Notes: generated by a model not told the origin, from the letters alone. DNA of 40,277 bases from Patescibacteria group bacterium (GCA_022711075.1 JAKLFS010000001.1:3859-44135), one strand, 5' to 3'; counted from the first letter of the stretch, positions 4,304-31,300 are shown. Made by a program: numbers and translations.

Positions 4304-4726
4304 TCAAATCTCCGTTAAGGAAATTAGGGAAACAACTGCTGTTTCGGGATTGATACTCACGACAGCCTGATATTTCTTTTGCCGCAAGAGAACCGTACCC
4401 ACACTGTTAATCGTCGCCTGATTATTGAGAAGGTCGTTGTTAATTGTCACGCTTACCTGCGTCCGCGTACCGGCTGTAAAAACATATTGCGTGCTATCCA
4501 AATCCTTATCTCTCACGAGCCGGAGAATGGCATCGTCTATTCCGGCTTTAGCGCCAAGCAAAGCTTCCTGCGCCAACCTGCTGCCATTACTTGATGAATT
4601 GGCCCAATAAGCCACAAAAGCAATGGCTATGCCCAATTCCATAATAATCAAGCCTATCATAATTACCAGCGGCAGCATAGTGATGCCCTTACTTTTTGTT
4701 TTTCTGACTAACATATGATTTTTCAT
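4304..4726 (-). CDS. PilX-like / pseudopilin-like small protein with an N-terminal hydrophobic helix (no Glu5)
   Basis: KSKGITMLPLVIMIGLIIMELGIAIAF, then AQEALLGAKAGIDDAI (PilX_N-like). The start overlaps the upstream stop (TAATG). Confidence 0.45.
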   Translation of the reverse strand: MKNHMLVRKTKSKGITMLPLVIMIGLIIMELGIAIAFVAYWANSSSNGSRLAQEALLGAKAGIDDAILRLVRDKDLDSTQYVFTAGTRTQVSVTINNDLLNNQATINSVGTVLLRQKKYQAVVSINPETAVVSLISLTEI

Positions 4727-7566
4727 TAAGGTGAGTAACCAATGATAACGCTATAAACATTGGGGCTATCGCTTAACCCGGCCGTCAGGTAAATACGGTA
4801 ACGGAAATAACGTCGCTGGTTATGATCAGCGAACCTTAAGGGTATTGCCTTGCCCGGATCGGCTGGACCATAATATCCGGTTTCCGTACCGTCGCTTCCC
4901 AAAAAAGGAGCGCCGCCTCCGGCTGAATTACCCCAGAGCAATCCACCGGCACAAGTAGGGTAATCGGTTGCTCCATTTGGGCAATTGGAAGAAGCGAAAG
5001 TAAAACGTACGTGTCCGCCATTCAATTGACCATTCCAAAGAATGGTATTGAAGATGGCGTTGCTGTTAACGTCAAAGGTGGACGATTCCAGATATCCGCT
5101 CGGAATAAAAATTTCCGTCGTTGTGCTGCTTTCATTAGTATAACTGGAAGAAATATTATCGTTAAAAGCATAGGCCCGATAACAATAGGTGGTGTTTTGC
5201 AGCAACGCCTCATCAGAATAACTGGTAACATTGGCAACAGTGGTATGTACCGGCAGGAATCCGGAGCAAGTCGTAGTGGCTCTTTCTATTTTAAAACCTG
5301 TTTCATTGTTGGAATTGTCAGTCCAAGTCAAATCAATTTGAGAGGAGCTGTTGGCGGTGGCCAAAAAATTGGACGGTGCGGGCAAGGTCGTGGTGGCAAA
5401 AACTTCAGAATAATTGGAATCGCCGTCGTTATTGTAAGGATAAACCCGATAATAATAAGTCGTACCGTCGGACAAACCGCTATCACTGTGGCTCGTAACA
5501 TTCGCGTCTTTGGTTGCCAATGAAGAATATGTTCCTCCGCTGCCTGTTTTTTTGTCTATCCTAAAACCGGTTTCATTGCCGGAATTATCATTCCAATGAA
5601 GGTCAATCTGCTCCGCCGAAATAATAGAGGCATTCAAGCCAGAAACGGCACAGGGCAAAGTTGGCTTAACCGAAACGACTGTCGCATAGCTGGAATCGGC
5701 ATCGGCCGTATAAGCCCGAACGCGATAGCAATAACTATCGTAACTGAGTCCGCTGCAAGTTAAAGTCGTGTCGGAATAAACAATGGCATTAGCGCCAGCC
5801 GTGCCAATCTGCGAAAAGCCGGCCGAACAACTGCCGATAGCCCTTTCTATTTTAAATCCCGCCTCGCCAATGGAATTGTCAACCCAGTTGATCACCAGAG
5901 AAGTCGGAGCAATTGTCTCAAAAGTTGTACCGCTGGGAGCCGACAAGCTGGTCGTAGCAGTAGCCAAAGCCGAACACGCTTCGCCGTCGTTATTATAGGC
6001 GCAAACGATGTAGCAATATTTTGTTCCTTCACCTAAATTAATATCGGAAGCGCTGATAACATTGGAACCTACACTTTGGACAAGAGGGCTGGAAACATCG
6101 CAAGCGGAACCAGCTGCGCGCCTGAGGTGAAAACCGGTCTCGCTGGAAGAATTATCAGTCCAAGAAAGATTTATCTGGGTAGAAGAAGTTGCCGAAGCAA
6201 CGGCTGCTAAACTGGACGGTGCCGCTGGCGGATTAGTGGTCGTACAACTGGCAGTACCGGAATATGAAGATTCAATAAAACTATTATAAGCTTTGGCCTT
6301 ATAACAATAGGTGGTGTTGGACGTCAAGCCGGTATCGGAATAACTCGTTGCCTCAGCTTCGGCATCAGCGAAATAAACAAAACCGGAACAGGTTGAAGTC
6401 GTTCGCTCTAATTTAAAACCCGTTTCGTTAATGGAATTATCCGACCAAAAAAGATTGATCTTATCCCCTCCCTGGGTAGAACAATTCAAGCTGGCAGGCG
6501 CAGGCAAAACCGTTATGGCCGATGCCGTGTTGGAATAATCGGAATGATTGCCTGAATAATAAGCCCTGATCCGATAACAATATCTTGTCCCGTCAGCCAA
6601 GCCACTGTCATTAAACGAAACGGCGCCGGCGCCAGCAGCAGAAATCAGGCTGAAGGCCGGAGAACCGGAACAATCGCTGTTAGAGGCTCTTTCAATTTCG
6701 AATCCTTCCTCGCCCAAAGAATTATCAGACCAAGAAAGGTTGATTTGAGATTGGGACACACCAGTGACAATTAAACCGTCAGGAGCGGTAAGGACCGTAG
6801 AACAACTATCTTCGGCGGTATAGCTGGAATAGGTGCCAGAATTATGATAAGCCCGAACCCGAAAGGAAACAGTCCGCCCCTGCTGCAGAGCGCCAGTGTC
6901 ATAAGTCACGGTATTAGCCGAAACAGTATCGTAAACGCCGTAGCTTCCACCACTGTATTTATATTCAATCTTATAACCGGTTTCCGCTGAAGAATGATCA
7001 GCCCAGTTAACCGTTGCCTTAGCATCATTGCCGGTTGTCCAGCAAGAAACATCCAAACCGGTTGGCGCGGTAAAAGCAGTGGTCGCACCCCAGGTTGAAG
7101 AAAAGGGACTGCAAACATCCGGACCGGCAGCGCACCAACCAGTAAAACCCGAACTCGTTCCGCAAAGTTGGCCACTACAGGAATAACAGCCGCTCTTACA
7201 GCCTTTCACTTCATAACTGTAATAAGTGCCCGGATTTAATCCGGAATGATCATAAGAAGTGCTCGTGGCGTTGATATTAAGCGCCGAACCCGAAACGCCA
7301 ACCAAATTATAATAATTAGTGGACGACACACTGCTCCAAGTCGGCCTCAGCATAGTTTCCGTTGCTCCTGTCAACCAGGTCAAATCTAAAGGAGTATCGG
7401 GCTCGGAACAAGCTGCCGAACAATCCGTGTCAAGATTGCAATCACATAAGGGCATCGCCTTGACCCTCTGAATCTGACCGAAAAATATCGGAACAATAAT
7501 CACGGCAAAGATAAAACCCGAGATAATGAAAGTTAAAATGTTTTTTTCTCTGAAAATTATCTTCAT
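4726..7566 (-). CDS. Large (946 aa) Cys-rich surface protein: N-terminal signal/anchor, one degenerate plus seven clear FN3 units, and a C-terminal 129-aa domain of unknown type
   Basis: Recurrent unit ...L(S/T/F/H)W.DNS..E.GF.IER....C.G......A..T.Y.D.GL...T.YCYR..AY.......S... about 93 aa long; N-terminal TM ILTFIISGFIFAVIIVPIFF. Confidence 0.85.
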   Translation of the reverse strand: MKIIFREKNILTFIISGFIFAVIIVPIFFGQIQRVKAMPLCDCNLDTDCSAACSEPDTPLDLTWLTGATETMLRPTWSSVSSTNYYNLVGVSGSALNINATSTSYDHSGLNPGTYYSYEVKGCKSGCYSCSGQLCGTSSGFTGWCAAGPDVCSPFSSTWGATTAFTAPTGLDVSCWTTGNDAKATVNWADHSSAETGYKIEYKYSGGSYGVYDTVSANTVTYDTGALQQGRTVSFRVRAYHNSGTYSSYTAEDSCSTVLTAPDGLIVTGVSQSQINLSWSDNSLGEEGFEIERASNSDCSGSPAFSLISAAGAGAVSFNDSGLADGTRYCYRIRAYYSGNHSDYSNTASAITVLPAPASLNCSTQGGDKINLFWSDNSINETGFKLERTTSTCSGFVYFADAEAEATSYSDTGLTSNTTYCYKAKAYNSFIESSYSGTASCTTTNPPAAPSSLAAVASATSSTQINLSWTDNSSSETGFHLRRAAGSACDVSSPLVQSVGSNVISASDINLGEGTKYCYIVCAYNNDGEACSALATATTSLSAPSGTTFETIAPTSLVINWVDNSIGEAGFKIERAIGSCSAGFSQIGTAGANAIVYSDTTLTCSGLSYDSYCYRVRAYTADADSSYATVVSVKPTLPCAVSGLNASIISAEQIDLHWNDNSGNETGFRIDKKTGSGGTYSSLATKDANVTSHSDSGLSDGTTYYYRVYPYNNDGDSNYSEVFATTTLPAPSNFLATANSSSQIDLTWTDNSNNETGFKIERATTTCSGFLPVHTTVANVTSYSDEALLQNTTYCYRAYAFNDNISSSYTNESSTTTEIFIPSGYLESSTFDVNSNAIFNTILWNGQLNGGHVRFTFASSNCPNGATDYPTCAGGLLWGNSAGGGAPFLGSDGTETGYYGPADPGKAIPLRFADHNQRRYFRYRIYLTAGLSDSPNVYSVIIGYSP
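5116..7074 (-). repeat. Seven tandem FN3-encoding units, period about 272-286 bp
   Basis: DNA landmarks of the GF.IER segment recur at about 5284, 5560, 5846, 6124, 6408, 6692 and 6964. Confidence 0.8.
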
Positions 7567-7583: not shown

Positions 7584-8237
7584 TTACATATCCACTTTAA
7601 TGGCGTTATTTTCAATAATAATGGGGGCGGAGGTGGCCGCATATGTGCCGCTGCTCACGGTATAGGGACCGGCACCGATATTACCGGATTGCCAATTGAA
7701 ATCTTTAAAATAAGCGGAAGTAGTCCGCATCAAATACTCGGAAATTGTAAAATTAGTATCAATGTTGGGCCAGGAAACAATCGCTGTTATTTTCTGCGCT
7801 GACGGATCTTCGCTAGTGCCGCTATAAGCAACGATCGCCCCTTCGCTGTTACGCGAAACATTTTCAATATTAAAATAATGGGTATAGATGATGCCGTCAA
7901 TGGTGGTCGTCGCCACCCCGCTTTGCATTTGCCAACTACCGTCAGAAAGAATGATTTGATAATTGACGGAAGCGCCTTTGCTTCCCGGACAAGAGCCTGA
8001 CGGCGGACAATAAATATTGAACCAATTGCTTTCGCCGATTGTTCTTACGGCTTCCAGGTCTTGCTGAGCCAAAGCCGTAGCCGTATTCGTCTGTTTCGTC
8101 TTTTCGCTGGCAATCAAGCTTGTGCCGATGGTTGAGGCCACGCCACCGATAACGACTCCGGCCATTACCACGGCGATTAAAATCTCTGCCAAAACCTGAC
8201 CGCCTTGATTAAGAAAAAAAGGGTTTTTAGTATGCAT
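7584..8237 (-). CDS. Minor type IV pilin-like protein (class III signal: ...NQGG|QVLAEILIAVVMAG, Glu5 present)
   Basis: Prepilin-like N-terminus. The ATG at 8237 is preferred; ATG 8264 and TTG 8279 are alternatives. Confidence 0.6.
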   Translation of the reverse strand: MHTKNPFFLNQGGQVLAEILIAVVMAGVVIGGVASTIGTSLIASEKTKQTNTATALAQQDLEAVRTIGESNWFNIYCPPSGSCPGSKGASVNYQIILSDGSWQMQSGVATTTIDGIIYTHYFNIENVSRNSEGAIVAYSGTSEDPSAQKITAIVSWPNIDTNFTISEYLMRTTSAYFKDFNWQSGNIGAGPYTVSSGTYAATSAPIIIENNAIKVDM

Positions 8238-8349
8238 TTTTGCGCCTCCCCAAAACTTCCTCATATGATTATTATACAAAAAAATAAGTCAATTCGCCAA
8301 TTAGCAGATCGGCCAAAAACGACGCCCCTAAGATTCGGGTTAATCACCC

Positions 8350-8847
8350 TTAATAATTTACTTGGCCAAGGGAATTGATAGAAATAGAGCGGGTTAAATC
8401 GGAATTAGCCACTGATTGCAAAATAATTGTCGTCGTGGCAACTGGCCGGCCGCTAATCCTTTGAAAAACAATGTCTTTGGTGCTGCTCGCTGCCGGATCA
8501 AGAAAACGCACCTGGTTAGATAAATAAACGGTTTCAACAGAAACGTCAACTCCATAAGAGCTGCCGCGAAAAAGCGCATAATATTCCTCGCCGCTGGCCG
8601 AATTCACAAAATGCACTCCCCAATCAGTCGGACCCTGACCGGAAACGGCTTCGCCGCTAATCGCCCTGTTTTGCGCTTGTCTTAAATAAGCTGTAATTTT
8701 TTCCGCCTCAGAAGTAATGTTGGCCGATTTGCGATAACCGCCCAAATAAGAGACGCCCACAACGCCTAAGACGGTTAAAATCGCCATAGAAAGAATAACT
8801 TCTATCAGGGTGAATCCCCAGCTTTTAGTGAATTTGGAATTTTTCAT
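8350..8847 (-). CDS. Minor pilin, GspH/FimT-like
   Basis: Canonical KSWG|FTLIEVILSMAIL prepilin motif. The ATG at 8847 is preferred over the TTG at 8886, which overlaps pilC. Confidence 0.75.
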   Translation of the reverse strand: MKNSKFTKSWGFTLIEVILSMAILTVLGVVGVSYLGGYRKSANITSEAEKITAYLRQAQNRAISGEAVSGQGPTDWGVHFVNSASGEEYYALFRGSSYGVDVSVETVYLSNQVRFLDPAASSTKDIVFQRISGRPVATTTIILQSVANSDLTRSISINSLGQVNY

Positions 8848-8860
8848 TTTGAGCCTGCCA

Positions 8861-10078
8861 TTATCCTCCTCCCATTTGACCGACAAATTGATACATCGGC
8901 ATAATTACCGCCAAAGCAATGCCGCCGACCACAACGCCAATAAACAAAAGCATCACCGGCTCAAAAACCGCCATCATTGACTTGATGGAATTGTCGATTT
9001 CCGTTTGGTAAAAGTCCGATAAACTGGACAAAACCTCTTCGGTGTGGCCGGCCTTCTCACCGATTGAAATCAAAGTGCGAATGGTCTGCGGAAAAATCTC
9101 CTCTTCCCGAAAAGCTTCTCCGAGGGTCATGCCACGAACGATCTTTTCCCGCGCAACGCGCAACAAAGCCTGCTTCATCTCTTCATTGCCGACCGTCGTA
9201 GCGGTAATTTCCAAATTTTCCAGAATCGGCAAACCGGACCGCATCAACGAACCGAAAGTATTCCCAAAACGCTGGTAAGCAATTTTTTTCAAGATATCGC
9301 TCACCAAAGGAATCTTGTAGATCAAACGGCTAAAAATAAGTCGGCCCGCCTTAGTCAAGCGGAAAAATATTATCAAGGCCACTATAATGACAGCTAAGGC
9401 GCCAAAAAGCCATAAGCCATTGGCCTGAAAAAAGAAAGAAACATTAAAAATAAACTTAGTCACAACCGGAATTTTCATATCGCTCTCCATAAACATGGAA
9501 GCCATTCTCGGAATAACAAAAGTAACCAGCATGATTAAAATCGCTAAGGAAGCGGAAATCAATAAGGCGGGGTAAGTTAAGGCTGAACGCACGCGCGAAT
9601 TCAATTCCCTTTCGGCCCCCAAAGAAGTGCTCAAATTGGCGAAAACCTGCTCCAGATTGCCCGAGGCCTCACCCGCCTTAATCAAATTGATGAAAACCGG
9701 AGAAAAAATCCTTGGATAGTTGGCGAAAGTGGTATAAAACGGCTTGCCGGCTTCCAAATTTTTTCTGATTTCCATTAGCAGGGCCCGAACCGCCGGTTTT
9801 TTGAAATCGGCGATTAAAATGTCAATGGCCTTAAAAATATCAGTGCCGACTTTAAGCATCAAAGACAAGTATTTAGTCAAAAAAAGCTTGTCCACGGTGG
9901 AAATCGGCGAACCTAAAACCCCCTTCAATTTTGATTTGGAAGTTTTGATGGCGCTCAATTTGATCGGGGTTAAACCCTGATTTTTTAAAAAATCCAGAAC
10001 CGCGGCGGAATCTTGAAAATCTCCGTCACCCTCAACTGTTTTTCCCTCTTTGTTGTAAGCCGTATAATGAAATAGCAT
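8861..10078 (-). CDS. pilC: Type IV pilus platform protein PilC (GspF family), copy 1
   Basis: 405 aa. The N-terminus MLFHYTAYNKEGKTVEG, a duplicated GspF-type domain and three TM segments are typical of PilC/GspF. Confidence 0.9.
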   Translation of the reverse strand: MLFHYTAYNKEGKTVEGDGDFQDSAAVLDFLKNQGLTPIKLSAIKTSKSKLKGVLGSPISTVDKLFLTKYLSLMLKVGTDIFKAIDILIADFKKPAVRALLMEIRKNLEAGKPFYTTFANYPRIFSPVFINLIKAGEASGNLEQVFANLSTSLGAERELNSRVRSALTYPALLISASLAILIMLVTFVIPRMASMFMESDMKIPVVTKFIFNVSFFFQANGLWLFGALAVIIVALIIFFRLTKAGRLIFSRLIYKIPLVSDILKKIAYQRFGNTFGSLMRSGLPILENLEITATTVGNEEMKQALLRVAREKIVRGMTLGEAFREEEIFPQTIRTLISIGEKAGHTEEVLSSLSDFYQTEIDNSIKSMMAVFEPVMLLFIGVVVGGIALAVIMPMYQFVGQMGGG

Positions 10079-11355: not shown

Positions 11356-13068
11356 TTATTCCCGGATTACCCTTAACACCTCTTCCAACGTAGTCAGACC
11401 CAACTCAGCTTTTCTGAGCCCATCTTCAAACATGGAAATCATTCCTTTCTGCCTGGCCAAAGCTCTTAATTTATCCAAAGTAAAATCAGGCTGATTGACC
11501 AAACGCCGCATATCCTCGTCAAAATCCAAAACTTCATAAATGGCCAACTGACCGCGATAACCGGTAAACCCACAAGTCGCGCAACCGACCCCTTTATAAA
11601 GAGTTCGCGGTAAAACGGGATTTTCCAAACCGGTAAATTCTTTTAGTTGCCTTTCCAAGGCCTTAGCCACTTCCGGCGTCACTTCCTGAGACTGAATGCA
11701 ATCGCGGCAAAGGCGGCGCAACAATCTTTGCGCCACGACGGTATTTAAAACCGCCGAAACCAAAAAAGCCGGAATTTTCATGTCAATCAATCGCGGAATG
11801 GCTGTCGGGGCGTCATTGGTATGCAAAGACGAAAGCACAAGGTGGCCGGTTAAAGCCGAGTGCACGGAAATTTCCGCCGTTTCTTCATCGCGGATTTCAC
11901 CGACCATAATGATATTGGGGTCTTGACGCAAAATCGCCCGCAGCCCGGTGGCGAAAGTGATTCCCGCCTGAGGATTAATCTGCGTCTGATTAACATACCG
12001 AATATCGTATTCAATCGGGTCTTCAGTCGTGACGATGTTGACATCCGGACGATTAAGCATGTTGATGATGGAATAAAGCGTCGTGGTTTTACCCGAACCG
12101 GTCGGACCGGTAACCAAAAGCATGCCATAAGTTTTTTTAATGCTTTCTTCTATAATATGCGCCGTATCCGGCAGCATCCCCAATTCAGCTAAACTCATCG
12201 GTTTAGCCGTTGCCCGCAACAAACGCATTTCCACTTTTTCACCGTAAAAAGTCGGCATTAAGGAAACACGGATATCCATCGCCTCGCCCAAGGCCTCATA
12301 ACGAAAACGTCCATCTTGCGGTTTGCGATGCTCATCAATTTTTAAACTGGCCAAAAGCTTAATGCGCGCCACAATCGCCGGCTGAATTTCTTTGGCAATC
12401 CTGATAATTTCGTGCAGAACGCCGTCAATGCGAAAACGGATTAAAAGCGTGTCTTGCAAAATTTCAATGTGGATATCCGAAGAATTCAAAGAAATGGCGT
12501 AAGCCAATATGGTATCGACCATATTGATTACCGGCAACTCATTGGCAATCTCCTGTTCGCCCACCATTTTCAATCGGCTGGAAGCAATCACACTCTCCTC
12601 AATGGCCTTCTGGAAATCTTCAACGATTTCCTTTCCGTAAAGGGAAAAAACGTAATTGAGATCCTTGGGCGTGGTTAAATATATTTTCACCGCCGAACCG
12701 GTGTATTTTTCCACAAAACCGATGGTTTCCAAATCGCTCGGATCTTCCATGGCCAAAGAAATACGGCCGGCCTCATCTTTATCAAAAACCGCCACCCGTT
12801 TAGTCCGGGCCACTTCTTCGGGAATTAAACTCAGAATAGCCTTCTTAATCGGCCGACCGCGTAATTTGACGAGCGGCGTTTTAAAAAAATCCGTATAAAG
12901 TTGGTAAAGATAATCTTCGGAAATAAAGCCGCGGGAAATAAAAATAGCCGCTGCATCTTGCCCGGTTCTTTTTGCTTCTTCCAAAACGGCATTGAAATCA
13001 TTTTCGGAAACCAAATGGCTCCCGACTAACAATTCTTTTAATTTTTCCAGCGGCAAATGCACGGCCAT
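11356..13068 (-). CDS. pilB: Type IV pilus assembly ATPase PilB (GspE family), copy 1
   Basis: Walker A GPTGSGKTTT, Asp/His boxes, the tetracysteine CRDC...CATC, and a GspE_N-like N-terminus. Confidence 0.92.
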   Translation of the reverse strand: MAVHLPLEKLKELLVGSHLVSENDFNAVLEEAKRTGQDAAAIFISRGFISEDYLYQLYTDFFKTPLVKLRGRPIKKAILSLIPEEVARTKRVAVFDKDEAGRISLAMEDPSDLETIGFVEKYTGSAVKIYLTTPKDLNYVFSLYGKEIVEDFQKAIEESVIASSRLKMVGEQEIANELPVINMVDTILAYAISLNSSDIHIEILQDTLLIRFRIDGVLHEIIRIAKEIQPAIVARIKLLASLKIDEHRKPQDGRFRYEALGEAMDIRVSLMPTFYGEKVEMRLLRATAKPMSLAELGMLPDTAHIIEESIKKTYGMLLVTGPTGSGKTTTLYSIINMLNRPDVNIVTTEDPIEYDIRYVNQTQINPQAGITFATGLRAILRQDPNIIMVGEIRDEETAEISVHSALTGHLVLSSLHTNDAPTAIPRLIDMKIPAFLVSAVLNTVVAQRLLRRLCRDCIQSQEVTPEVAKALERQLKEFTGLENPVLPRTLYKGVGCATCGFTGYRGQLAIYEVLDFDEDMRRLVNQPDFTLDKLRALARQKGMISMFEDGLRKAELGLTTLEEVLRVIRE

Positions 13069-14399: not shown

Positions 14400-14786
14400 C
14401 TACTTGGTTAAATGAAGGAATTCTTTGACCTTCTCAATTAAATCGTCAATGGATATCTTGGCTTTAACGAAATATTCTACTGCCCCCAATTCCTTGCCCC
14501 TCTGAATATCGCTCGTTTGTCCTAAATTGGAAATGATAATTACCGGCATATCTTTTAGCTGCGGATCAGTTGATATTTTTTCCAAGACTTCAAATCCGCT
14601 CTTTTTCGGCAGAATCAAATCCAATAAAATCAGGGAGGGGCGGTTGGCCGTTAAATCTTTAAGGGCCTCCTCTCCGTCCCGTGCCAAAGTAACGTCAATA
14701 TTTTCGCGTTGCAACCGGACTTTCAACAAATTAGACAAAAAGGGGTCGTCTTCCACCAAGAGAATTTTTAACGCATTTCCATCCAT
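14400..14786 (-). CDS. Stand-alone CheY-like response regulator receiver domain
   Basis: ILLVEDDPFL...LILLDLILPKKSGFEVL...IIISN...KA, with no output domain. The ATG at 14786 is preferred over the GTG at 14798, which would sit at the predicted TSS. Confidence 0.85.
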   Translation of the reverse strand: MDGNALKILLVEDDPFLSNLLKVRLQRENIDVTLARDGEEALKDLTANRPSLILLDLILPKKSGFEVLEKISTDPQLKDMPVIIISNLGQTSDIQRGKELGAVEYFVKAKISIDDLIEKVKEFLHLTK

Positions 14787-14803
14787 AAATTGTTTCACTT
14801 TTA

Positions 14804-15073: not shown

Positions 15074-16594
<1,521 letters not shown>

Positions 16595-16615
16595 AAAAAA
16601 TAAACTTGAATGATC

Positions 16616-22959: not shown

Positions 22960-23874
22960 TTAAACGTTAAATAAAGAAAAATAAAAGTTCGTTAGTGTTT
23001 GACCGAAAAAGAAAACGGCCAAAACGCCCAGAGCTAAAAAGGGGCCAAAGGGAACGGCATCCTTCAATTTCTTTTTCGTCGCAAGAACAATGATTAGAGA
23101 AACGAAGGCGCCAATTATAAAAGAAAGACCCAAACCGATTAAACCGGCGCCAAGACCAAGCATTAAACCGATTAAAATCGCCAGCTTAACGTCGCCGAAA
23201 CCCATTGCCTTGCCGCGGCTAAAAGCATAAATTAAAAAAAGGATGATGGACAAAATAAATGCTCCTGCCAAAGCTGAGGTTAAAACGTTAAAATGAATGT
23301 TGACCACGTCAGCATAGGGACCCAAAAAATTCAAGCCGTGCACGGGAAATAAACTGCCTCGCGTTAGGCTCAAAAAATAAAAACTCAAATTGGCCAGCAG
23401 AGAAATAGCGATGGCCGGAAAAACTATTTTATCAGGCAAAAGATAATGACGCAGATCAATTATTGATAAGGCGATGAGAACGGCTGCGTAAAAAAGCCAA
23501 ATAAGAATGACTGCGACTACCCAAAAATTTGTCCGCGGATCGGAAAAAAAATAATGAGCGAAAAAATTAAAATCAAGAATGCGCCAGGTTACGCCCGCAA
23601 AGATTAAAGCCGTCAGCCCCTCCACCAGCGGATACTGCCAAATAAGCTTCTTGCGACAATAACGACAGCGACCACGCAAAAAAATAAAGCTTAGGATTGG
23701 AATAAGCTCAAACCATTTCAACTGTTGGCCGCAACGCAAACAGTGGGAACGACCCCTGACGATTTTTATAACCTGAGTATCTTCCGCGGGGTTCCAGCGC
23801 AAAGTAAGGACATTGATAAAGCTGCCCACCACCAAGCCCAGAAGCCCCGCAAAGATAATAAGAAGATAAGACAT
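22960..23874 (-). CDS. pilD: Prepilin peptidase / N-methyltransferase (A24 family)
   Basis: GSFINVL, CLRCGQQL...CRYCRKKL and GFGDVKL motifs; multi-TM. Confidence 0.9.
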   Translation of the reverse strand: MSYLLIIFAGLLGLVVGSFINVLTLRWNPAEDTQVIKIVRGRSHCLRCGQQLKWFELIPILSFIFLRGRCRYCRKKLIWQYPLVEGLTALIFAGVTWRILDFNFFAHYFFSDPRTNFWVVAVILIWLFYAAVLIALSIIDLRHYLLPDKIVFPAIAISLLANLSFYFLSLTRGSLFPVHGLNFLGPYADVVNIHFNVLTSALAGAFILSIILFLIYAFSRGKAMGFGDVKLAILIGLMLGLGAGLIGLGLSFIIGAFVSLIIVLATKKKLKDAVPFGPFLALGVLAVFFFGQTLTNFYFSLFNV

Positions 23875-23897
23875 GCGATTTTTACGCTAAATTGCTT

Positions 23898-24377
23898 TTA
23901 GAATTGAACGCAATAAACGCCGTCAGCTCCGCAGTCGATTCCAAAATCGCAAGAGCCGGAACTGGTTCCCTGAGCGCTATCTTTAAGCGCCTGATTGCCC
24001 GTATCTTCCAAGGTCGCTGCCACGACATAATTCTGGCCGAGGTTGCAATCTTGATAATAGTAAGAAATTCCGTTATCGTCAGTCGCCAAAGGATCCTGAG
24101 GCACCTGATTCAAGCCGATCCCCGCTCCGGTAATTGAGGCCGTCAAAGCCGTCCATTTTTGGCTGGCGCTGCCAGCGGGCGCAGTGGGATAAGAAGAATT
24201 ACGAGTATAATAAATCTCCAAAGCGTTTTGCACCTGTTTCAGATCGGAAACCCTTCTGGCATCCCTGCCCCTTGAACGAAATTGGCTAAGACCAACTAAA
24301 ATCAAAGAAGATAAAATTCCGATAATAGCCACAACTATCAACATTTCGATTAAAGTAAAACCCTTTTGTTTTTTCAT
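23898..24377 (-). CDS. pilA: Type IV pilin, candidate major pilin of locus 2
   Basis: MKKQKG|FTLIEMLIVVAIIGIL with Glu5; C-terminal cysteines. Confidence 0.85.
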   Translation of the reverse strand: MKKQKGFTLIEMLIVVAIIGILSSLILVGLSQFRSRGRDARRVSDLKQVQNALEIYYTRNSSYPTAPAGSASQKWTALTASITGAGIGLNQVPQDPLATDDNGISYYYQDCNLGQNYVVAATLEDTGNQALKDSAQGTSSGSCDFGIDCGADGVYCVQF

Positions 24378-24459
24378 AATTAATATGTATTAAACGACCT
24401 TTTTATTCTGCAAATAAGATCCGGGAAATAATTTGCCCTTCGTCTTATTCAAAAATTAA

Positions 24460-25671
24460 CTAAAAGACCGAGGCCAAGTTATAAATTGGCAAAAGTACGG
24501 CCCCGACGAACAAGCCAATGAATAATCCCAGAACAACGATAATAGCCGGCTGAACCATTTCCACCAAATTGTTAATGGAATTCTGGACCTCCTCATTGTA
24601 GAAAGAGGAAACTTTATCCAGCAAAGTGTCTAACTGCCCGGAAGTTTCGCCGATCGCCACCATTTGCGTCACGAGCGGCGGGAAATATTCGGGATAACGA
24701 CTGAGGCTGGCGGAAATCGTTCCGCCCCGTCTGATTTCCTCGGCCGTCTCATTCAAAACTCTGCGATACACTTGATTACTGACTACGCGCGCGGAAATTT
24801 CCAAGGAATCGGTCACCGATATTCCACCCTTCAAAAGCACGCTGGTCGAGGTCGCAAAACGGGTAATGGCCGTCTTCTTAATCAAGGTGCCGAACAGGGG
24901 AATGCCCACTGTTAATTCATCCCAAACCGGCTTTCCTTCGTCGCTTCTGAAATAACGAACAGCGACAACAACGGCCACAACTAAAACGATTAAAAGCGCC
25001 CAGCCCCAAGAAGACATAAAAGTACCAAGCCCCATCAAAACTCTGGTCAGAAATGGCAATTGCACATTCACTTCGGAAAAAATAGAACGCATCTGCGGCA
25101 TTACCACCGTTAAGATTAAAATCATCACCGCAATAAAAATTCCTATGACGAAAACCGGATAAATCATCGCGCTTTTAACACGACTGGATAAGCGCATTTC
25201 TTTTTCCAGATAATCAGCCATAAAGAGCAGGGTTTCTTCCAAGCGACCGGAAACTTCAGCGGAACGCACCATGTTCACGTAAAAATCGGAAAAGACTTTA
25301 GGATGCTTGGAAAGCGCTTGGGAAAAGTACAATCCCCCGTCAACATCGGTATAGACATCGAAAATCACGTCTTTCAGCGCCGGCGTGGAAATCTGTTTGT
25401 GCAAAGTTTTCAAAGAATCGGATAAGGCCACTTTGGCCGAAAGCAAAGTGCTTAATTGTCTGGTAAAAAGCATCAGCTCCTTTGGTTTGACTTTCTGGAA
25501 AAGACCGGAAAATTTGCCCCAAACATTCTTTTTCTCTAATGATTCCAGCGACAAAAGGTAAAGCTTGTTCTCCTGCAAAATTTTGATAGCCAAATCCCGG
25601 CTGGCGGCCTCCACCATGCCGGCTTGCGTTTCACCTAATTCATTTCTTGCGCTGTAACGGAATTTTGCCAT
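24460..25671 (-). CDS. pilC: Type IV pilus platform protein PilC (GspF family), copy 2
   Basis: MAKFRYSARNELGETQAG, duplicated GspF domains and three TM segments. Confidence 0.9.
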   Translation of the reverse strand: MAKFRYSARNELGETQAGMVEAASRDLAIKILQENKLYLLSLESLEKKNVWGKFSGLFQKVKPKELMLFTRQLSTLLSAKVALSDSLKTLHKQISTPALKDVIFDVYTDVDGGLYFSQALSKHPKVFSDFYVNMVRSAEVSGRLEETLLFMADYLEKEMRLSSRVKSAMIYPVFVIGIFIAVMILILTVVMPQMRSIFSEVNVQLPFLTRVLMGLGTFMSSWGWALLIVLVVAVVVAVRYFRSDEGKPVWDELTVGIPLFGTLIKKTAITRFATSTSVLLKGGISVTDSLEISARVVSNQVYRRVLNETAEEIRRGGTISASLSRYPEYFPPLVTQMVAIGETSGQLDTLLDKVSSFYNEEVQNSINNLVEMVQPAIIVVLGLFIGLFVGAVLLPIYNLASVF

Positions 25672-25677
25672 AGTTAT

Positions 25678-26754
25678 TTATCTCGCCAGCAAACTGCCCA
25701 ATTCCGCCGGATTCAACGAATACATTTGGGCACTTTCCAAAGAAATTTCTCCTTGGCGCACTAAGGCGGCCAGCGAACGATTTAAAGAAATCATTTTTTC
25801 TTGGATTCCGGTCTCAATCACCAGATCAATCTGATAAATTTTGTCCTCGCGAATCAGATTGCGAATAGCAGAATTGGTAATCATCACCTCGCAGGCAGGA
25901 ATGCGGCCGCCGGAAAGCCGCGGGATTAACCGCTGAGAAACAATGCCAACTAAAGTGGAGGCAATTTGAGATTTGATCTGGTTCTGCTGACCAGCCGGAA
26001 AACTGTCAATGATCCGATCCAAAGTTTGAGAAGCGGAATTAGTATGCAAAGTGGAAAACACCAAGTGACCGGTTTCGGCAGCCGTAATCGCTGTTTGAAT
26101 TGTTTCCGCATCGCGCATCTCGCCGATCATGATGACATCAGGATCCTGTCTTAAAACCGAACGTAAAGCCCGATGAAAACTCGGAGTATCGCTGGCCACT
26201 TCTCTTTGATCAATAATGCAACGGTCTTGATTAAAAACGTATTCAATCGGGTCTTCAATAGTAATAATATGGCTAGTCCGCTTATGATTTATCTCATCAA
26301 CCATGGCTGCCAAGCTCGTTGATTTTCCATGGCCAGCCGGACCAACCACAATCACAAACCCCTGCGACGGCTTAGTAAAATCATGGAGCACTGGCGGCAT
26401 ATTCAATTCTTCCAATGTTTTAATTCTAAAAGATATGAGACGCAAAGCGGCGGCCATATTCCCTCTCTGGAAATAAACGTTGACGCGAAAACGAGCTTTA
26501 TCGGTATAAGAATAAGAAAAATCCAATTCGCGATCTTTTAGAAATTGTTCCCGTCGCTGCTCCGGCACCAAAGCATAAACCATCCCCTCCACTACTTCTT
26601 TGGTAAAAACGTCTTCTTTGACTAAAGTCGTCAAACGTCCGTCGATTCTTAGAGTCGGCCGGCGGCCAACGGCAAAATGCAAATCCGAGGCATTTTCTTT
26701 AGCGGCCAAGGCCAATAATCCGTCTAACTTTTCTTTATAAAATGTGTTGTCCAT
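25678..26754 (-). CDS. pilT: Twitching-motility retraction ATPase PilT
   Basis: 358 aa; ASDLHF..., Walker A GPAGHGKST, and short PilT-type architecture without a GspE N-domain. Confidence 0.92.
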   Translation of the reverse strand: MDNTFYKEKLDGLLALAAKENASDLHFAVGRRPTLRIDGRLTTLVKEDVFTKEVVEGMVYALVPEQRREQFLKDRELDFSYSYTDKARFRVNVYFQRGNMAAALRLISFRIKTLEELNMPPVLHDFTKPSQGFVIVVGPAGHGKSTSLAAMVDEINHKRTSHIITIEDPIEYVFNQDRCIIDQREVASDTPSFHRALRSVLRQDPDVIMIGEMRDAETIQTAITAAETGHLVFSTLHTNSASQTLDRIIDSFPAGQQNQIKSQIASTLVGIVSQRLIPRLSGGRIPACEVMITNSAIRNLIREDKIYQIDLVIETGIQEKMISLNRSLAALVRQGEISLESAQMYSLNPAELGSLLAR

Positions 26755-26797
26755 AGTCTGTTATGATAATATTTTTTATTCGTCTAATTTTATTTAA

Positions 26798-28552
26798 TTA
26801 AACTGTTTCCTTTAAAATTTCGTCGATGGAGACCACGCCGTCCAAGGCCTTGATTAATCCGTCCTGCCGCAAAGTAATCATCCCCTGCTTTTTAGCCACT
26901 AACGTCAGGTTGCTTTCCGTCGGGTCCTTTAAAATCGCTTCGGCTAATTCCGGAGTCATTTCCAGCATTTCAAAGATTCCAATCCTGCCTTTAGTGCCTT
27001 TGTAATTGCAAGCTTCGCAACCTTGCGGCAGATATATTTCTATCGGCTCTTTAACGGCTAATTTTTCTTTGAGGGCCGTTGGCAATCCGGATAATATTTT
27101 TTTAATCTCCTCCAATAAACTGCCCGAGGCTATCACTTTCTTTTTGCAATTATCGCAAAGGCGGCCGACCAATCTTTGGCTCATCATCAAAATCAAAGAC
27201 GAAGGCAGAAGAAAAGGCTCAACCTTCATATCAATCAAGCGCGACACCACTCCGATGGCATCATTGGTATGCAGAGTGGAAAGAACTAAGTGACCAGTCA
27301 ACGCCGCATGCACTGCCAAGGCCGCTGTTTCATTGTCGCGGATTTCACCAACCATAATGATATCCGGATCCTGCCGCACAATCTGCCTTAATCCCGAAGC
27401 AAAATCATAGCCGATTTCCGGTTTAACCTGAGACTGATTGATTCCCTCCATGAAATATTCCACCGGGTCTTCCAAACTAACGACATTAACGTCTTCTTTG
27501 TTCAAAGTGCCAAGGATGGCATAAAGAGACGTAGTTTTACCAGAACCTGTCGGGCCAGTGGCTAAAATCATCCCGAAGGGCTTATCCATCGCCGTTTTCA
27601 AAAGCTTCAAATGATAGTCCCTAACTCCCAAATCGGAAATCGTTTTCAAGCCAACGGAAGCATCAAGCAAGCGAATCGCCACTTTCTCGCCAACGGCAGT
27701 CGGGAAAGTGGAAACACGGAAATCGATTTCTTTGTTGTCAATTAAAGTGCGGAAGCGGCCATCCTGAGGCACTCGCGACTCATCGATTTTCAATTCCGAA
27801 AGAATTTTAATGCGGGAAACTATCGGCGCCTGCAATTCCAAGGGCAAATTCAAAACATTCTTCAAATCACCGTCAATCCGAAAACGCACCCTGAGCCGAG
27901 AACGTTGCGGTTCAATATGGATATCCGAAGCCCGCTCCGCCGCCGCTTGATGCAAAATCGTGGAAACCAATTTAATAACCGGAGCTTCTTCGGCAATCAG
28001 ACCGCTCGCTTCTTCAATTTTCACTATGCGCTGTTGCGGCAACAGATAAGACGATTTGCTCTGCCGCTTAAATATATCCAAAGCCTCAGTCACTTCTTTC
28101 ACGCGCGTATCAAAAGTCCGGTAGCCTCGTGATAAATCATATAAAGCCGTTGGCGTGATAAGATAAATGCCGATATTAACTTTTTTCTGTTTGGCGATAA
28201 ATCTTAATACTTCTTGCGCCCGAACGTCATCGGGTTGCAGCATGCCCACCAAAACTGTATCCTTATCTCGGGCAAAGGCCACTAATTTATGCGTTTTAGC
28301 CACTTCCTCGGGAATAAAATTCAAAATTTCCGGAGCAACTGCCTCATCTTTTTTAAAAGTTTTAAGAGGGACCTTAAAAAATTCGCTTTTCGCTTGGCCG
28401 AGCTCTTCTTCGGAAACTATCCTCTTTTCGTTGATAATATCTTCGACGGGTCGGTTTAAACTTTCGGCCTCTTTTAAAACACTATCGGCAATAGCCGAAG
28501 TAATTTTCCCGTTTTTAAGCAAAGTATCAATGAGACTTTTATTGGAAATCAT
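26798..28552 (-). CDS. pilB: Type IV pilus assembly ATPase PilB (GspE family), copy 2
   Basis: Walker A GPTGSGKTTS, the tetracysteine CDNC...CEAC, and a GspE_N-like N-terminus. Confidence 0.92.
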   Translation of the reverse strand: MISNKSLIDTLLKNGKITSAIADSVLKEAESLNRPVEDIINEKRIVSEEELGQAKSEFFKVPLKTFKKDEAVAPEILNFIPEEVAKTHKLVAFARDKDTVLVGMLQPDDVRAQEVLRFIAKQKKVNIGIYLITPTALYDLSRGYRTFDTRVKEVTEALDIFKRQSKSSYLLPQQRIVKIEEASGLIAEEAPVIKLVSTILHQAAAERASDIHIEPQRSRLRVRFRIDGDLKNVLNLPLELQAPIVSRIKILSELKIDESRVPQDGRFRTLIDNKEIDFRVSTFPTAVGEKVAIRLLDASVGLKTISDLGVRDYHLKLLKTAMDKPFGMILATGPTGSGKTTSLYAILGTLNKEDVNVVSLEDPVEYFMEGINQSQVKPEIGYDFASGLRQIVRQDPDIIMVGEIRDNETAALAVHAALTGHLVLSTLHTNDAIGVVSRLIDMKVEPFLLPSSLILMMSQRLVGRLCDNCKKKVIASGSLLEEIKKILSGLPTALKEKLAVKEPIEIYLPQGCEACNYKGTKGRIGIFEMLEMTPELAEAILKDPTESNLTLVAKKQGMITLRQDGLIKALDGVVSIDEILKETV

Positions 28553-28643
28553 AAAAAATTATTTTAATTTATAAGCCGGGCGCCGCTCCGCCGAACCGAA
28601 CCCTATTTCTAAATTTGGCGCGCCTCCTGTTCCAGCGAAATCT

Positions 28644-28982
28644 TTAAAACGGAATGAACGGATTGGGTCGACCCAAACTTCCGATATCAACGGGGTCGGC
28701 ATAGGAATGAAGGGATTGATAAATTGAATTTTCCAGGACTGTTGCCGGATCAAACTTTAGATTGATGATTCCGCCGGTTACGTCTTTTTGCAAGTCAGCC
28801 TGCAACAAAGAAAGATCGCTGCTTTGACCGAAAATCAAACCAACGATCTTGCTCAAAATCCCGCCCGAAGAAGCGCTCGGCGCAAAAAACACAAAATAAA
28901 TGACAATAATGGCCACAATCAAAACACCGATAAATATGTAGAGCCATGTTCTTTTCTTTGGTTTTTCTTCAAGTGTTTCCAT
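28644..28982 (-). CDS. Small membrane-anchored protein, possibly PilP-like (C-terminal GRPNPFIPF)
   Basis: One TM (WLYIFIGVLIVAIIVIYFVFF), a position after pilO, and a C-terminal R-x-NPF motif reminiscent of the RDPF motif in PilP-type proteins. Confidence 0.4.
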   Translation of the reverse strand: METLEEKPKKRTWLYIFIGVLIVAIIVIYFVFFAPSASSGGILSKIVGLIFGQSSDLSLLQADLQKDVTGGIINLKFDPATVLENSIYQSLHSYADPVDIGSLGRPNPFIPF

Positions 28983-28993
28983 GATATTTTTAC

Positions 28994-29575
28994 TTATTGA
29001 TAATAAACATTAAGGATAACTCTGAAATTGAAGAGGCCGGAATTCTTCTGGCTATCGGTTGTGGAGCCGGCAAAAGCGATATTAACGATATCCATTAAAC
29101 GAATGTCGCTTTCAACGGCATTAAGCCAAGTCTTCAATGATTCGTAATTACCCGTAAGTCCGAGGGTTAGGCGCAAAGTTTTATAGCTCTGAACTATATT
29201 CTGCGCGCTTTTCTTGGAACTGGGAGTTGAAACTCCGACATTTTCAAAATTAATACTCTGCAAGGACAGGCCGCTTTGCGTGGTAATCGTCTCCAATTGC
29301 GCCAATAAATTTTGAATCTCGGCGCCGCGAGGAATGCTTAAAGAAATCGTCTGACTCACGCTGATCAGACTCTTATACTGGTCAATGATGGATTTCGCAA
29401 TCTGAACAGCCTGATACTGTGTATCATATTGGGATTTTTCCTCGTTGATTTTCTTATTTAAATCTCCCACCTCTTTGAAAGCCGGCCAGGTCCAAACAAA
29501 AATTACTACCAGCGCCAAAATCAAAACGACGAGGGACAAAGTTAAACTAATATTTCTTTTGGCTGTATATTTCAT
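28994..29575 (-). CDS. pilO: PilO-like pilus alignment protein
   Basis: N-terminal TM plus coiled coil plus an alpha/beta C-terminal domain; third gene in the pilM-N-O order. Confidence 0.55.
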   Translation of the reverse strand: MKYTAKRNISLTLSLVVLILALVVIFVWTWPAFKEVGDLNKKINEEKSQYDTQYQAVQIAKSIIDQYKSLISVSQTISLSIPRGAEIQNLLAQLETITTQSGLSLQSINFENVGVSTPSSKKSAQNIVQSYKTLRLTLGLTGNYESLKTWLNAVESDIRLMDIVNIAFAGSTTDSQKNSGLFNFRVILNVYYQ

Positions 29576-29593
29576 AGTGGACCCGATCGGAGA

Positions 29594-30142
29594 TTACTGG
29601 AAATTTTTTAAAACCAGCGACGATTTGAAAAATATTTCCATGGAGAAAGTCGTTTTGCCTGCGCCTTGACGAAGGTCGGATAAAGTAACGCTATCGAAAT
29701 CGGAAGTTCTTTGAAAGGCCAAAAGCTGCTGAGCAATCGCCTGTAAATTCTGGCCATAACCATCCATTTGGAGGCGATTTTCGTTAAAATCGTAACTAAA
29801 GTTTGTAAAAGCAACCTGCGGATGCGTAGTTAATTCCAGCCTTTCAAAAATCTGCGAGGGATAGATGTGTTTTTCCAGTAGCGTCCGCAAATTAACCAGC
29901 TGCGAATAAAAAGCCACTACCCCCTCTCTATCCTGAGTGGGAATTTCCTTTTCCAGACCCTTAATTTTATTCTCTAAATCAGCTGATTGACGATCCAAAA
30001 CTCCGATGTAAACATAGTGAATCAAAAGATAAAGGACTAAAGCGATGATAAAAATAATAATGGAAAAACGCAAAAATTTTCCCAGCCAGCCGCTCGGCTT
30101 TTTTTCCGGACCGAATGATTCCATTAATTGAAAATCAGGCAT
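29594..30142 (-). CDS. pilN: PilN-like pilus alignment protein
   Basis: Cytoplasmic N-terminus, a single TM (FSIIIFIIALVLYLLI), a coiled coil, and a position after pilM. Confidence 0.55.
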   Translation of the reverse strand: MPDFQLMESFGPEKKPSGWLGKFLRFSIIIFIIALVLYLLIHYVYIGVLDRQSADLENKIKGLEKEIPTQDREGVVAFYSQLVNLRTLLEKHIYPSQIFERLELTTHPQVAFTNFSYDFNENRLQMDGYGQNLQAIAQQLLAFQRTSDFDSVTLSDLRQGAGKTTFSMEIFFKSSLVLKNFQ

Positions 30143-30172
30143 AAGAACTTAATTTTTATGGCTTATATCTAT

Positions 30173-30214
30173 ATTATACACTTTTTTAATAGGCAACCCA
30201 AGGAGTTATCCACA
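30173..30214 (-). promoter_or_regulatory. Internal promoter between pilM and pilN (TTGGGT-17-TATAAT) with a perfect DnaA-box 9-mer (30206-30214) 4 nt upstream of the -35
   Basis: -10 at 30173-30178 and -35 at 30196-30201 (minus-strand sense); TTATCCACA on the plus strand at 30206-30214. Confidence 0.45.
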
Positions 30215-30256
30215 TTAGAGCGCCGATTTTCAAGGCCAAGCAGATTTCATCTTTAT

Positions 30257-31300
30257 TTAGTATATTCCCCGCAGCGCCAGACCGGTGGCCACAGCCAAAG
30301 ACGGCCCGATCTCTTTCAATAATGGCTCTAAAAATTGCTGATAAGAGATGTTCGCAAACGGCCAAGCGCGCTTAACGCTCAATTCTAATTGCTGAGACAA
30401 ATATTTTTCTAACCCCGGTAAATTTGCCGTACCGCCGGCCAAGATTACGTTCTTGATGTCAACGCCGGTCTTTTCTTTGTAAATATTGAGGGAGCGGGAA
30501 ATTTCATTGCCGAAATAATCAATAACCGGAAGCATCAGGTTAACCACTTCCGTTTCTTGCGGCTCAACATTAAAACCCTTCACCCTTTTAAATTCTTCGG
30601 CCCGCTCCTTGGAAACACCCAAACCCTGCGCGATCACGTGAGTAATTTCCGAACCGGCCGTAGTCAAATTCTCATTGCTCACCAAATAGCCGTTTTCCAC
30701 AATCGCCACATTGGTGGATTGAGCGCCCACGTCCAAAATCAAAGCCGGAGACTTATCCTGACCCAAAAGCGATCGGGCCAAAGACACGCTTTCCAATTCA
30801 AAGGCAACCACGTCTAAGCCAACACCCTTGGCAATTCTTTGATAGCGCTGGATTAAATCCTTGGGAATGGCGATTAAAAGAATTCGGCTGGAAACGTTTT
30901 TGGCCAGGCGATTTCCCTCATTGATAATCGCCCAATCAATAGTCAAATCCTCCAGGGGCAAAGGAATGTATTTTTTCGCCTCAAAAGGAATGGCGCGGCT
31001 TATTTCTTTCTCATCAGTAAGAGGTATGTCAAAAATCGTCACAAAGCTGGAAAAAATAGGCAAAGAAATAACGGCCCGTTTAGTATGCGGTTTAAAGCTT
31101 TTTAAAAGCTTTTTAAGCAGATCGACGGTCGTTTCCTCTACAATCTTGAAATAACTTGATTGAATGGCGGCATTTGGCCTATCCAAATAACCGTAGGTCT
31201 CCAAAATACCGTAATTGTCCAAAACAATTTCGCTGCCGGACTTTGACAGTTCCACTATTTTAATATTGCTGGTTCCGATATCAACGCCCAAAGATCGCAT
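30257..31300 (-). CDS. pilM: PilM, actin-like pilus assembly ATPase-fold protein
   Basis: MRSLGVDIGTSNIKIVEL..., AIPFEAKKYIPLPLEDLTIDW, and GGTANLPGL. Confidence 0.85.
   Translation of the reverse strand: MRSLGVDIGTSNIKIVELSKSGSEIVLDNYGILETYGYLDRPNAAIQSSYFKIVEETTVDLLKKLLKSFKPHTKRAVISLPIFSSFVTIFDIPLTDEKEISRAIPFEAKKYIPLPLEDLTIDWAIINEGNRLAKNVSSRILLIAIPKDLIQRYQRIAKGVGLDVVAFELESVSLARSLLGQDKSPALILDVGAQSTNVAIVENGYLVSNENLTTAGSEITHVIAQGLGVSKERAEEFKRVKGFNVEPQETEVVNLMLPVIDYFGNEISRSLNIYKEKTGVDIKNVILAGGTANLPGLEKYLSQQLELSVKRAWPFANISYQQFLEPLLKEIGPSLAVATGLALRGIY

Follow-up and report, generated by a model that had tools for sequence, protein, structure and literature searches.

A candidate tip-complex protein apparently split from a modular pilin in a type IV pilus operon of Patescibacteria

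We analyzed a 40,277-nucleotide stretch of DNA from a Patescibacteria group bacterium (GCA_022711075.1 JAKLFS010000001.1:3859-44135), hereafter the window, and focused on one gene of its type IV pilus operon, which encodes a 946-amino acid (aa) protein built around an array of fibronectin type III (FN3) domains (Table 1). On the minus strand, a single tightly packed string of genes extends from about 14.8 kb to 2.1 kb, and the FN3 gene sits in it between the genes of two minor pilins, here named W231 and W140. An earlier reading made from the sequence alone, the sequence-only reading, had placed this open reading frame (ORF) between a minor pilin with glutamate at position 5 (Glu5) and a PilX-like protein; the ORF, its length and both flanks were confirmed, as was the TAATG coupling by which the stop codon of the FN3 gene overlaps the W140 start. 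The pilus-associated stalk or adhesin that it had proposed is supported by the synteny and the gene fission and fusion described below. The gene product probably forms part of the minor-pilin (priming/tip) complex without itself being a pilin; this Paceibacteria-like bacterium, which belongs to the candidate phyla radiation (CPR), has two type IV pilus systems, and the complex is that of one of them.

The N-terminus of the FN3 protein had been described as a signal or anchor without a prepilin motif. The G-x-x-x-x-E motif is indeed absent, but residues 1-37 are better read as a putatively cleavable Sec signal peptide than as an anchor: a basic n-region leads into a hydrophobic core, about 20 aa long, and a VKA↓MP site. 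Small residues at positions -3 and -1, just before the first Cys motif, were kept in all 10 of the 10 orthologues read (sites such as VKA↓M, AIA↓V, AEA↓I, LMA↓D and VRA↓D), and an AxA-type site was found at the matching position in P0002-4, P0014, P0017, P0024, P0044, P0049 and P0084. The four-Cys motif that would open the mature protein was kept in the nearest orthologues, with another Cys-rich pattern in its place in more distant FN3-type orthologues. No LPXTG motif was seen on reading the FN3-protein sequence.

The FN3 fold of the repeats was borne out by Pfam PF00041, which matched the 946-aa protein with E = 5e-39 and 132.8 bits (cut-off 25). Alignment of the units and a hidden Markov model gave seven matches, U1-U7, each of 91-96 aa (273-288 bp), with pairwise identities of 20-52%. 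The sequence-only reading had counted seven clear units and a degenerate one within aa 165-817; the seven clear units stand, but the degenerate one (U0) lies outside that range, at aa ~55-122. Likewise, the Cys-rich stretch that it had described does contain its two Cys clusters (CxCx5Cx3C at 41-53, and 123-152) but also holds U0. This unit matched Pfam fn3 weakly and below the cut-off (E = 1.4e-3 over aa 59-125) and was 17-29% identical to U1-U7 when aligned, which brings the FN3-like domains to eight; U0 also bears the six-Cys stretch (123-152) as a Cys-knot insertion. The Cys pair proposed to recur in most units, one Cys after ...ER and one in YCY, is present in five of the seven, and the whole protein has 30 Cys. 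Tandem Repeats Finder found no DNA-level tandem repeat in the gene, which indicates diverged units and no recent amplification, as had been suggested.

The domain at the C-terminus, which we call CT, had been left unassigned, and it remained so in our searches: the domain, of about 130 aa, had no sequence match in Pfam, NCBIfam or PDB, and its C-terminal 128 aa had none in Pfam even at E ≤ 10. PDB sequence searches with a CT profile and with a fusion profile gave no relatives, and no Pfam family covered CT in ten members scanned. A word-indexed search with CT alone returned no match, the query itself included, which reflects a limit of the index. A CT profile built from alignment A1 and run against 1.8 billion representative proteins identified 2622 clusters at E ≤ 1e-3, of which 1001 also passed E ≤ 1e-10. 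CT lies nearly always at the extreme C-terminus, with the ending ...D(V/I)I(I/V)NWSP (...NWSP or ...GYSP). All 35 CT-bearing genome loci were from Patescibacteria, and the nearest were metagenome-assembled genomes mostly labelled Paceibacteria or Parcubacteria. The position of CT, a conserved beta-sandwich, at the very end of its proteins also led us to consider a C-terminal sorting domain of the type IX secretion system (T9SS; Por_Secre_tail), which we rejected: neither PF18962 nor TIGR04183 matched the window protein or the ten CT proteins. Among the matches of the full-protein search, PF18962 was seen only in unrelated FN3 proteins of other phyla.

We performed AlphaFold2 (AF2) structure prediction on CT alone and on a natural fusion of CT to a pilin. 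CT alone was modelled as a beta-sandwich with a predicted local distance difference test (pLDDT) score of 74, and the CT region within the fusion reached about 84-92. Foldseek matched the fusion model to carbohydrate-binding modules (CBMs) of the CBM6/CBM35 type (2c26, E = 5e-5; 2cdo/2cdp, probability 1.0 and template modeling (TM) score about 0.5), to the discoidin domains of factor VIII (FVIII) C2 and neuropilin b1 (probability 0.95-0.99) and to the PNGase C-terminal domain. The model of CT alone gave weak matches within the same fold class (CBM32, APC10 and CBM4), the best being CBM32 at E = 0.085. With moderate confidence, CT is thus predicted to be a galactose-binding-like jelly roll of the CBM6/discoidin-like kind.

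CT occurs in several architectures: (a) a prepilin of about 320-350 aa with a G↓QSLIE motif, a conserved "tail" and CT; (b) a prepilin, tail, "GWIDF"-repeat domain and CT in about 490-530 aa; (c) a Sec signal peptide, GWIDF domain and CT in about 280-310 aa; (d) the window type, with Sec signal peptide, Cys-rich region, FN3 array and CT; (e) a G↓FTLVE prepilin of about 600 aa that adjoins PilC and has tail and CT near its end; and (f) a signal peptide and CT only, or large proteins with several CT copies. CT behaves as binding modules typically do: it can be the lone domain after a signal peptide, in proteins about 150 aa long, and other proteins contain 4-5 copies of it in tandem. These two settings, which lack the tail, also led us to reject the requirement that pilin tail and CT form two halves of one fold, as in a split-domain or donor-strand arrangement. 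The GWIDF domain is secreted, spans about 170 aa and shows conserved Cys pairs and repeats of the motif (Y/W)AWND.IGWI(D/S)F; no Pfam family describes it. In most Patescibacteria loci (L004-L027, L071-L115; e.g., L017 9470-10336) it links the signal peptide, or else the pilin tail, to CT.

We then compared the FN3 protein with its orthologues. A full-protein search returned 2818 FN3 proteins; among the top 120, only 11 have the N-terminal region of the window protein as well as its CT. Repeat number, which the sequence-only reading had suggested comparing among related genomes, varied widely: the orthologues, including further ones taken from the loci, have 2, 3, 5, 6, 7 or 10 canonical FN3 units, and the closest relatives (62-68% identity) have three units more than the window protein. 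Stalk length thus varies among relatives. A sub-type with three FN3 units (L009 5662-7899, L044 and L046; P0122) has an N-terminal region of about 360 aa, 48 Cys in total (6.4%) and a gap of about 740 nt between its gene and the pilin gene.

Synteny with pilin genes was conserved in relatives, as the proposed pilus role would lead one to expect. The closest relative, L001, has the order PilB, PilC, pilin, pilin, FN3 protein, PilX-like, PilM/N and NDK, identical to the window apart from the LamG-domain pilin, which is missing in L001. Two more distant FN3-type orthologues (L002 and L003) lie among unrelated housekeeping genes with no further pilus gene close by, and each has a W231-type Glu5 pilin directly upstream, which in L002 overlaps the FN3 gene by ATGA. 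That the pilin was retained in such surroundings indicates that the conserved core is the gene pair of pilin and FN3 protein. FN3-type partners were found only beside the pilins most similar to W231 (≥52% identity), and the next most similar pilins (43-50% identity) are direct pilin-tail-CT fusions.

To place CT relative to the pilins, we performed two scans, one seeded with CT and one reciprocally with the pilin. The CT-seeded scan covered the 35 genome loci: the CT gene directly follows a W231-type pilin in 17, usually with W140 and PilM/N next; CT is fused to a W231-type pilin, with no separate gene, in four (L006, L010, L023 and L024); type (e) prepilins account for seven; two CT genes are orphans away from pilus genes (L008 and L019); and five lie at contig edges or are otherwise unclassifiable. 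In the pilin-seeded scan we classified the best 80 of 325 metagenome loci. CT was fused to the pilin in 23 and encoded in the next gene in 32; one next gene was FN3-type but ended by the contig edge, about 10 loci had no CT nearby, and 14 were not assessable. CT was thus on or beside the pilin in about 85% of the 65 assessable loci, fused or in the next gene.

The junction between pilin and CT is precise. The last ~45 aa of W231 (window 7599-7730) form the conserved tail, F.D.NW.SG...G.I.V, and the pilin-CT fusions of L006, L024 and P0128 align collinearly with W231 as far as its last residue, with CT beginning immediately afterwards. Across the loci, the tail (F.QTDWSGG...G.I.) always ends unfused pilins and, in fused ones, always precedes CT or a module plus CT, and CT is always at the C-terminus of the split partner. 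Fused GWIDF pilins run from the tail through a short linker into TNIDSxxRYAWNDxIGWIDF, and the predicted mature N-terminus of split GWIDF proteins starts exactly at ATNIDS... after the signal-peptide site. As judged from these alignments, the split falls exactly at a domain boundary.

The CT module of the window protein is homologous to one carried on bona fide pilins, since the CT profile matches the pilin-fused proteins with E values of 1e-28 to 1e-45. The window protein has no prepilin leader or pilin helix in the same chain as the module; L006, L010, L023, L024, P0128, P0151 and others do. With CT joined to the tail of the neighboring pilin type in so many relatives, we infer that the window protein is a modular tip pilin's distal half that has become detached. 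Its clade has 2-10 FN3 units in array as the middle module, in the slot between signal peptide and CT that GWIDF takes in short secreted CT proteins elsewhere. The comparative evidence supports the fission of a modular pilin as the source of this non-pilin protein of the tip complex, and CT as an undescribed and very widespread CPR domain.

These comparisons suggest a mechanism, set out here from genomic comparison. The protein would be exported by Sec, cleaved at its signal peptide and oxidized outside the membrane. GspH-like and Glu5-less pilin types form the priming/tip complex in other systems, and here W231 would sit with the GspH-like and the Glu5-less PilX-like pilins in a complex that primes assembly on PilC/PilB. 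The FN3 protein would bind W231 non-covalently, and the growing filament would keep the priming complex at its tip. An FN3 domain is about 3.5 nm long; the array may serve as a rigid spacer of about 25-30 nm, probably braced by disulfides, given the Cys pairs in five of seven units. With this spacer the lectin-like CT would reach outward and bind a glycan on the surface of a host or partner cell. A tip location would agree with the argument, made in work on modular pilins, that a filament has room for bulky C-terminal modules only at or near its tip (PMC8179133). The fusion order pilin-tail-module-CT suggests that the N-terminal end of the module adjoins the pilin and that CT lies at the far end; the fold of CT, its tandem copies and its place as the sole added module in direct fusions argue that it is the ligand-binding part.

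Several observations weigh against this proposal. No CT gene lay near about 15% of the assessable W231-type pilins, and the two orphan CT genes lie away from pilus genes, which suggests that the partnership of pilin and CT is frequent and not obligatory. The Foldseek matches of CT are modest (TM 0.4-0.5). The distal position of CT is the weakest step of the mechanism, because a conserved CT and a variable middle module are the pattern of the docking end in PilY1. The orientation could therefore be reversed, with CT docked on the pilin tail and the N-terminal Cys-rich cap plus the FN3 array (or GWIDF) acting as a distal, host-specific adhesin. CT is the one module that all split proteins keep, and it almost always closes the protein with a conserved ending; the middle module is exchanged from one clade to another, and the mature N-terminus varies by clade, as expected of a specificity determinant. 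The order of the fused proteins, however, puts the N-terminal end of the module beside the pilin, and in the pilin-tail-CT fusions of the direct kind nothing but CT is added, so that CT must carry the function. Tandem copies and CT proteins without pilin context also fit a ligand-binding module better than a docking domain, and we regard the reversed orientation as unlikely, though as a serious rival. A related idea, which strikes us as very doubtful, is that CT is a general "pilus-loading tag" that routes proteins exported by Sec to the W231-type tip pilin, at its tail. In about 2600 clusters CT ends the protein, either after diverse passenger domains (FN3, Kelch/propeller, LamG and GWIDF) or as the sole domain following a signal peptide. 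If this were true, the type IV pilus of Patescibacteria would double as a display or export device for a repertoire of surface proteins, CT would have a role comparable to that of the T9SS C-terminal sorting domain, and the window FN3 protein would be a cis-encoded client.

The cluster that encodes the FN3 protein lacks PilT, so a piston-like mode resembling the type II secretion system (T2SS) is also possible. The cluster would then act as a T2SS pseudopilus, or as a type IVb pilus of the kind that exports TcpF or CofJ, and push the FN3 protein through the wall or S-layer, after which it would be released or stick to its own cell surface via CT. The Sec signal peptide resembles those of T2SS substrates, the GspH-like and GspK-like subunits could be pseudopilins, the only PilT lies in a second cluster, a module split from its pilin could be released, and orphan CT genes exist. 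In 27 loci, however, the same modules are covalently attached to a pilin and could not be released, the tight coupling of its translation to that of the pilins on either side points to assembly in stoichiometric amounts, and a Pfam scan of the FN3 protein found no protease or other effector domain. We consider export as cargo distinctly improbable and keep it at lower weight because the cluster is without PilT and the protein is Sec-exported. That the protein is a generic cell-surface FN3 protein beside pilin genes by coincidence seems to us extremely improbable. FN3 arrays of the ETGF type are a common feature of unrelated surface proteins across many phyla and make up most of the 2818 matches, but the 11 orthologues that share both terminal domains adjoin a W231-type pilin wherever their context is readable, and CT is fused to such a pilin in other lineages. 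The fusions are unlikely to be artefacts of assembly or gene calling because they recur in 27 independent contigs. Taken together, we favor the reading in which a modular tip pilin lost its distal half to a separate protein with CT at the far end.

The sequence-only reading had assigned the gene to a PilY1-like slot. What stands is the position, conserved and occupied by a non-pilin Sec protein inside a minor-pilin operon; but Pfam and NCBIfam scans found no PilY1/PilC domain (Neisseria_PilC or PilY1) and only FN3-type matches, so homology to PilY1 was rejected and the relation is one of analogy. The PilY1 family is defined by a C-terminal beta-propeller (Pfam PilY1/Neisseria_PilC), a conserved domain that docks on minor pilins. 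Like PilY1/PilC of Pseudomonas, Neisseria and Myxococcus, the window protein is a large non-pilin Sec protein encoded beside a Glu5-less PilX/GspK-type pilin, with one end conserved and the other variable, and is proposed to ride the tip with the priming complex. Unlike them, and with no sequence or domain relationship, it has a jelly roll of about 130 aa as its conserved end and an FN3 array as the rest, and its putative origin in the fission of a modular pilin is still visible.

CofJ on CofB in enterotoxigenic Escherichia coli (ETEC) and TcpF with TcpB in V. cholerae are likewise Sec-exported, operon-encoded non-pilin proteins that depend on and bind a tip minor pilin; they are small, are released as colonization factors and bind via an N-terminal peptide. 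The window protein resembles them as a Sec-exported partner encoded in a pilus operon, whereas they have no FN3 array, no CT and no sign of an origin by pilin fission. FN3 spacers linked to carbohydrate-binding modules occur in bacterial glycoside hydrolases and adhesins. The combination of an FN3 array with a CBM-like jelly roll is similar, but the window protein has no catalytic domain and lies in a pilus operon. In Streptococcus sanguinis, modular pilins carry at the C-terminus of a minor pilin an adhesin or lectin module that the pilus displays (PilB a vWA module, PilC a lectin module; PMC8179133, PMC9934059). Relatives of the window locus have the comparable orders pilin-tail-CT and pilin-tail-GWIDF-CT. 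In the window, by contrast, the module is on a separate Sec-exported chain without a pilin moiety, and CT and the FN3 stalk differ from the S. sanguinis modules.

The system of Saccharibacteria strain TM7x, from the same superphylum, is also similar, with two pilus systems and a minor pilin that has a lectin-like jelly roll lacking a database family. Its minor pilin PilX1 has a C-terminal beta-jelly roll described as "absent from CDD", which is lectin/CBM-like and proposed to recognize host glycans (PMC11623550 / PMC12206443), and its PilX2 has a beta-propeller and is a proposed tip adhesin, with rhamnose blocking host binding (PMC11623550). PilX1 differs from the window protein in being a single polypeptide with a pilin-like helix, and no FN3 stalk or split form was described there. 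The type (e) prepilins (L028, L029, L031, L034-L037; e.g., L029 8669-10477), which comprise a CarboxypepD_reg-like domain, tail, CT and then about 50 residues, are very common and might correspond to PilX1. With such a CT prepilin of about 600 aa as the query, 2242 proteins reached E ≤ 1e-5 among 8000 candidates scored; these were only Paceibacteria-type pilins (N_methyl plus CarboxypepD_reg), with no named TM7x protein. In the literature on FN3 proteins in pilus operons, split tip pilins and PilY1 in CPR bacteria we found no description of the window protein's family.

To our knowledge, all cultivated Patescibacteria live attached to other microbes. Type IV pili are leading candidates for finding and holding hosts in this group, and we know of no host-contacting parts identified outside one Saccharibacteria strain. 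CT is a concrete and widespread candidate for such contact: it is lectin-like by predicted fold and ends either the tip pilin or the protein encoded by the next gene. The exchangeable middle modules and the 2-10 FN3 units lead to testable predictions on reach and host specificity. With both the fused and the split state preserved, the family suggests that a non-pilin tip protein can arise by a split at a domain boundary and the gain of a Sec signal peptide, and PilY1-like proteins in general may plausibly have arisen by the fission of modular pilins.

Table 1. Positions in the window of the FN3-array protein, its parts, and the other genes of the two pilus clusters and their surroundings.
Feature	Position	Strand	Remarks
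PMT-family (dolichyl-phosphate-mannose protein mannosyltransferase-like) membrane glycosyltransferase	20-1834	plus	converges on pilus operon end
NDK (nucleoside diphosphate kinase)	2149-2760	minus	last gene of pilus operon
PilM/N-like fusion protein, 508 aa	2767-4293	minus	NCBIfam pilM weak, E = 5.5e-6
W140, Glu5-less PilX/GspK-like minor pilin, 140 aa	4304-4726	minus	by motif and position
FN3-array protein, 946 aa	4726-7566	minus	ATG start
CT domain, aa 818-946 and stop codon	4726..5115	minus	ends ...IGYSP
Seven tandem FN3 domains U1-U7, aa 165-817	5116..7074	minus	
Degenerate FN3-like unit U0 (~55-122), six-Cys insertion (123-152) and linker, aa 55-164	7075..7404	minus	
Predicted mature N-terminus, aa 38-54	7405..7455	minus	four-Cys motif CxCx5Cx3C (41-53)
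Sec-type signal peptide, aa 1-37	7456..7566	minus	read from sequence
W231, Glu5 minor pilin	7584-8279	minus	prepilin motif G↓QVLAE; partner of FN3 protein
W178, GspH-like minor pilin	8350-8886	minus	G↓FTLIE; position conserved
PilC platform protein	8861-10078	minus	Pfam T2SSF
LamG-domain prepilin, 412 aa	10115-11353	minus	Pfam Laminin_G_3 and N_methyl
PilB ATPase	11356-13068	minus	homology to L001 gene carrying T2SSE/MshEN
Conserved polytopic membrane protein, 199 aa	13081-13680	minus	no Pfam match
Prepilin, 216 aa	13684-14334	minus	
Response regulator	14400-14798	minus	
16S rRNA gene, full-length, bacterial	15074-16597	minus	1410 bits
PilD prepilin peptidase, second cluster	22960-23874	minus	
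Prepilin, 159 aa, second cluster	23898-24377	minus	
PilC2, second cluster	24460-25671	minus	
PilT-like ATPase, second cluster	25678-26754	minus	
PilB2, second cluster	26798-28552	minus	
112-aa ORF, second cluster		minus	listed between PilO and PilB2
PilO, second cluster	28994-29575	minus	
PilN, second cluster	29594-30142	minus	
PilM, second cluster	30257-31300	minus	

Next, we characterized the remaining genes of the pilus operon. W140 starts with KG↓ITMLP... and contains QEALLGAKAG; it and its homologues, which come after the CT gene in at least 15 loci, begin KG↓I(A/T)(L/M)LP..., lack Glu5 and share a QEAL.AA.AG..DA motif. W140 fits a putative cap pilin of the GspK/PilX type, an assignment made on motif and position because it had no significant Pfam match. 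W178 matched GspH / PRK10506 in NCBIfam and N_methyl and GspH in Pfam, all weakly, and the position of the PilM/N-like protein after W140 is conserved in many loci. In the prepilin encoded between PilB and PilC, the Laminin_G_3 (ConA-like) domain is C-terminal; since this gene is missing from the otherwise syntenic L001, it looks like a second, variable modular pilin of the operon. The gene of the 199-aa membrane protein, flanked by those of the first prepilin and PilB, has the same slot in eight or more related loci (L001, L004, L006, L021, L025 and L026 among them) and is an uncharacterized conserved component of the pilus cluster. NDK ends the pilus operon also in L001, L007, L009, L011 and L024, a conserved association. 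The PMT-family enzyme may glycosylate the pilins or the Ser/Thr-rich FN3 protein; two PMT-family genes lie at the corresponding place in L001 (13638-17144).

Beyond the operon, the 16S rRNA gene is solitary, between the pilus operon and housekeeping genes, and Rfam detected no 23S or 5S gene in the 40-kb window, so that the rRNA genes appear unlinked. Finally, a second, complete type IV pilus gene set lies at 22960-31300, also on the minus strand, and holds the only retraction ATPase of the two clusters. The presence of two pilus gene sets in the window recalls the two-pilus arrangement reported for Saccharibacteria TM7x.

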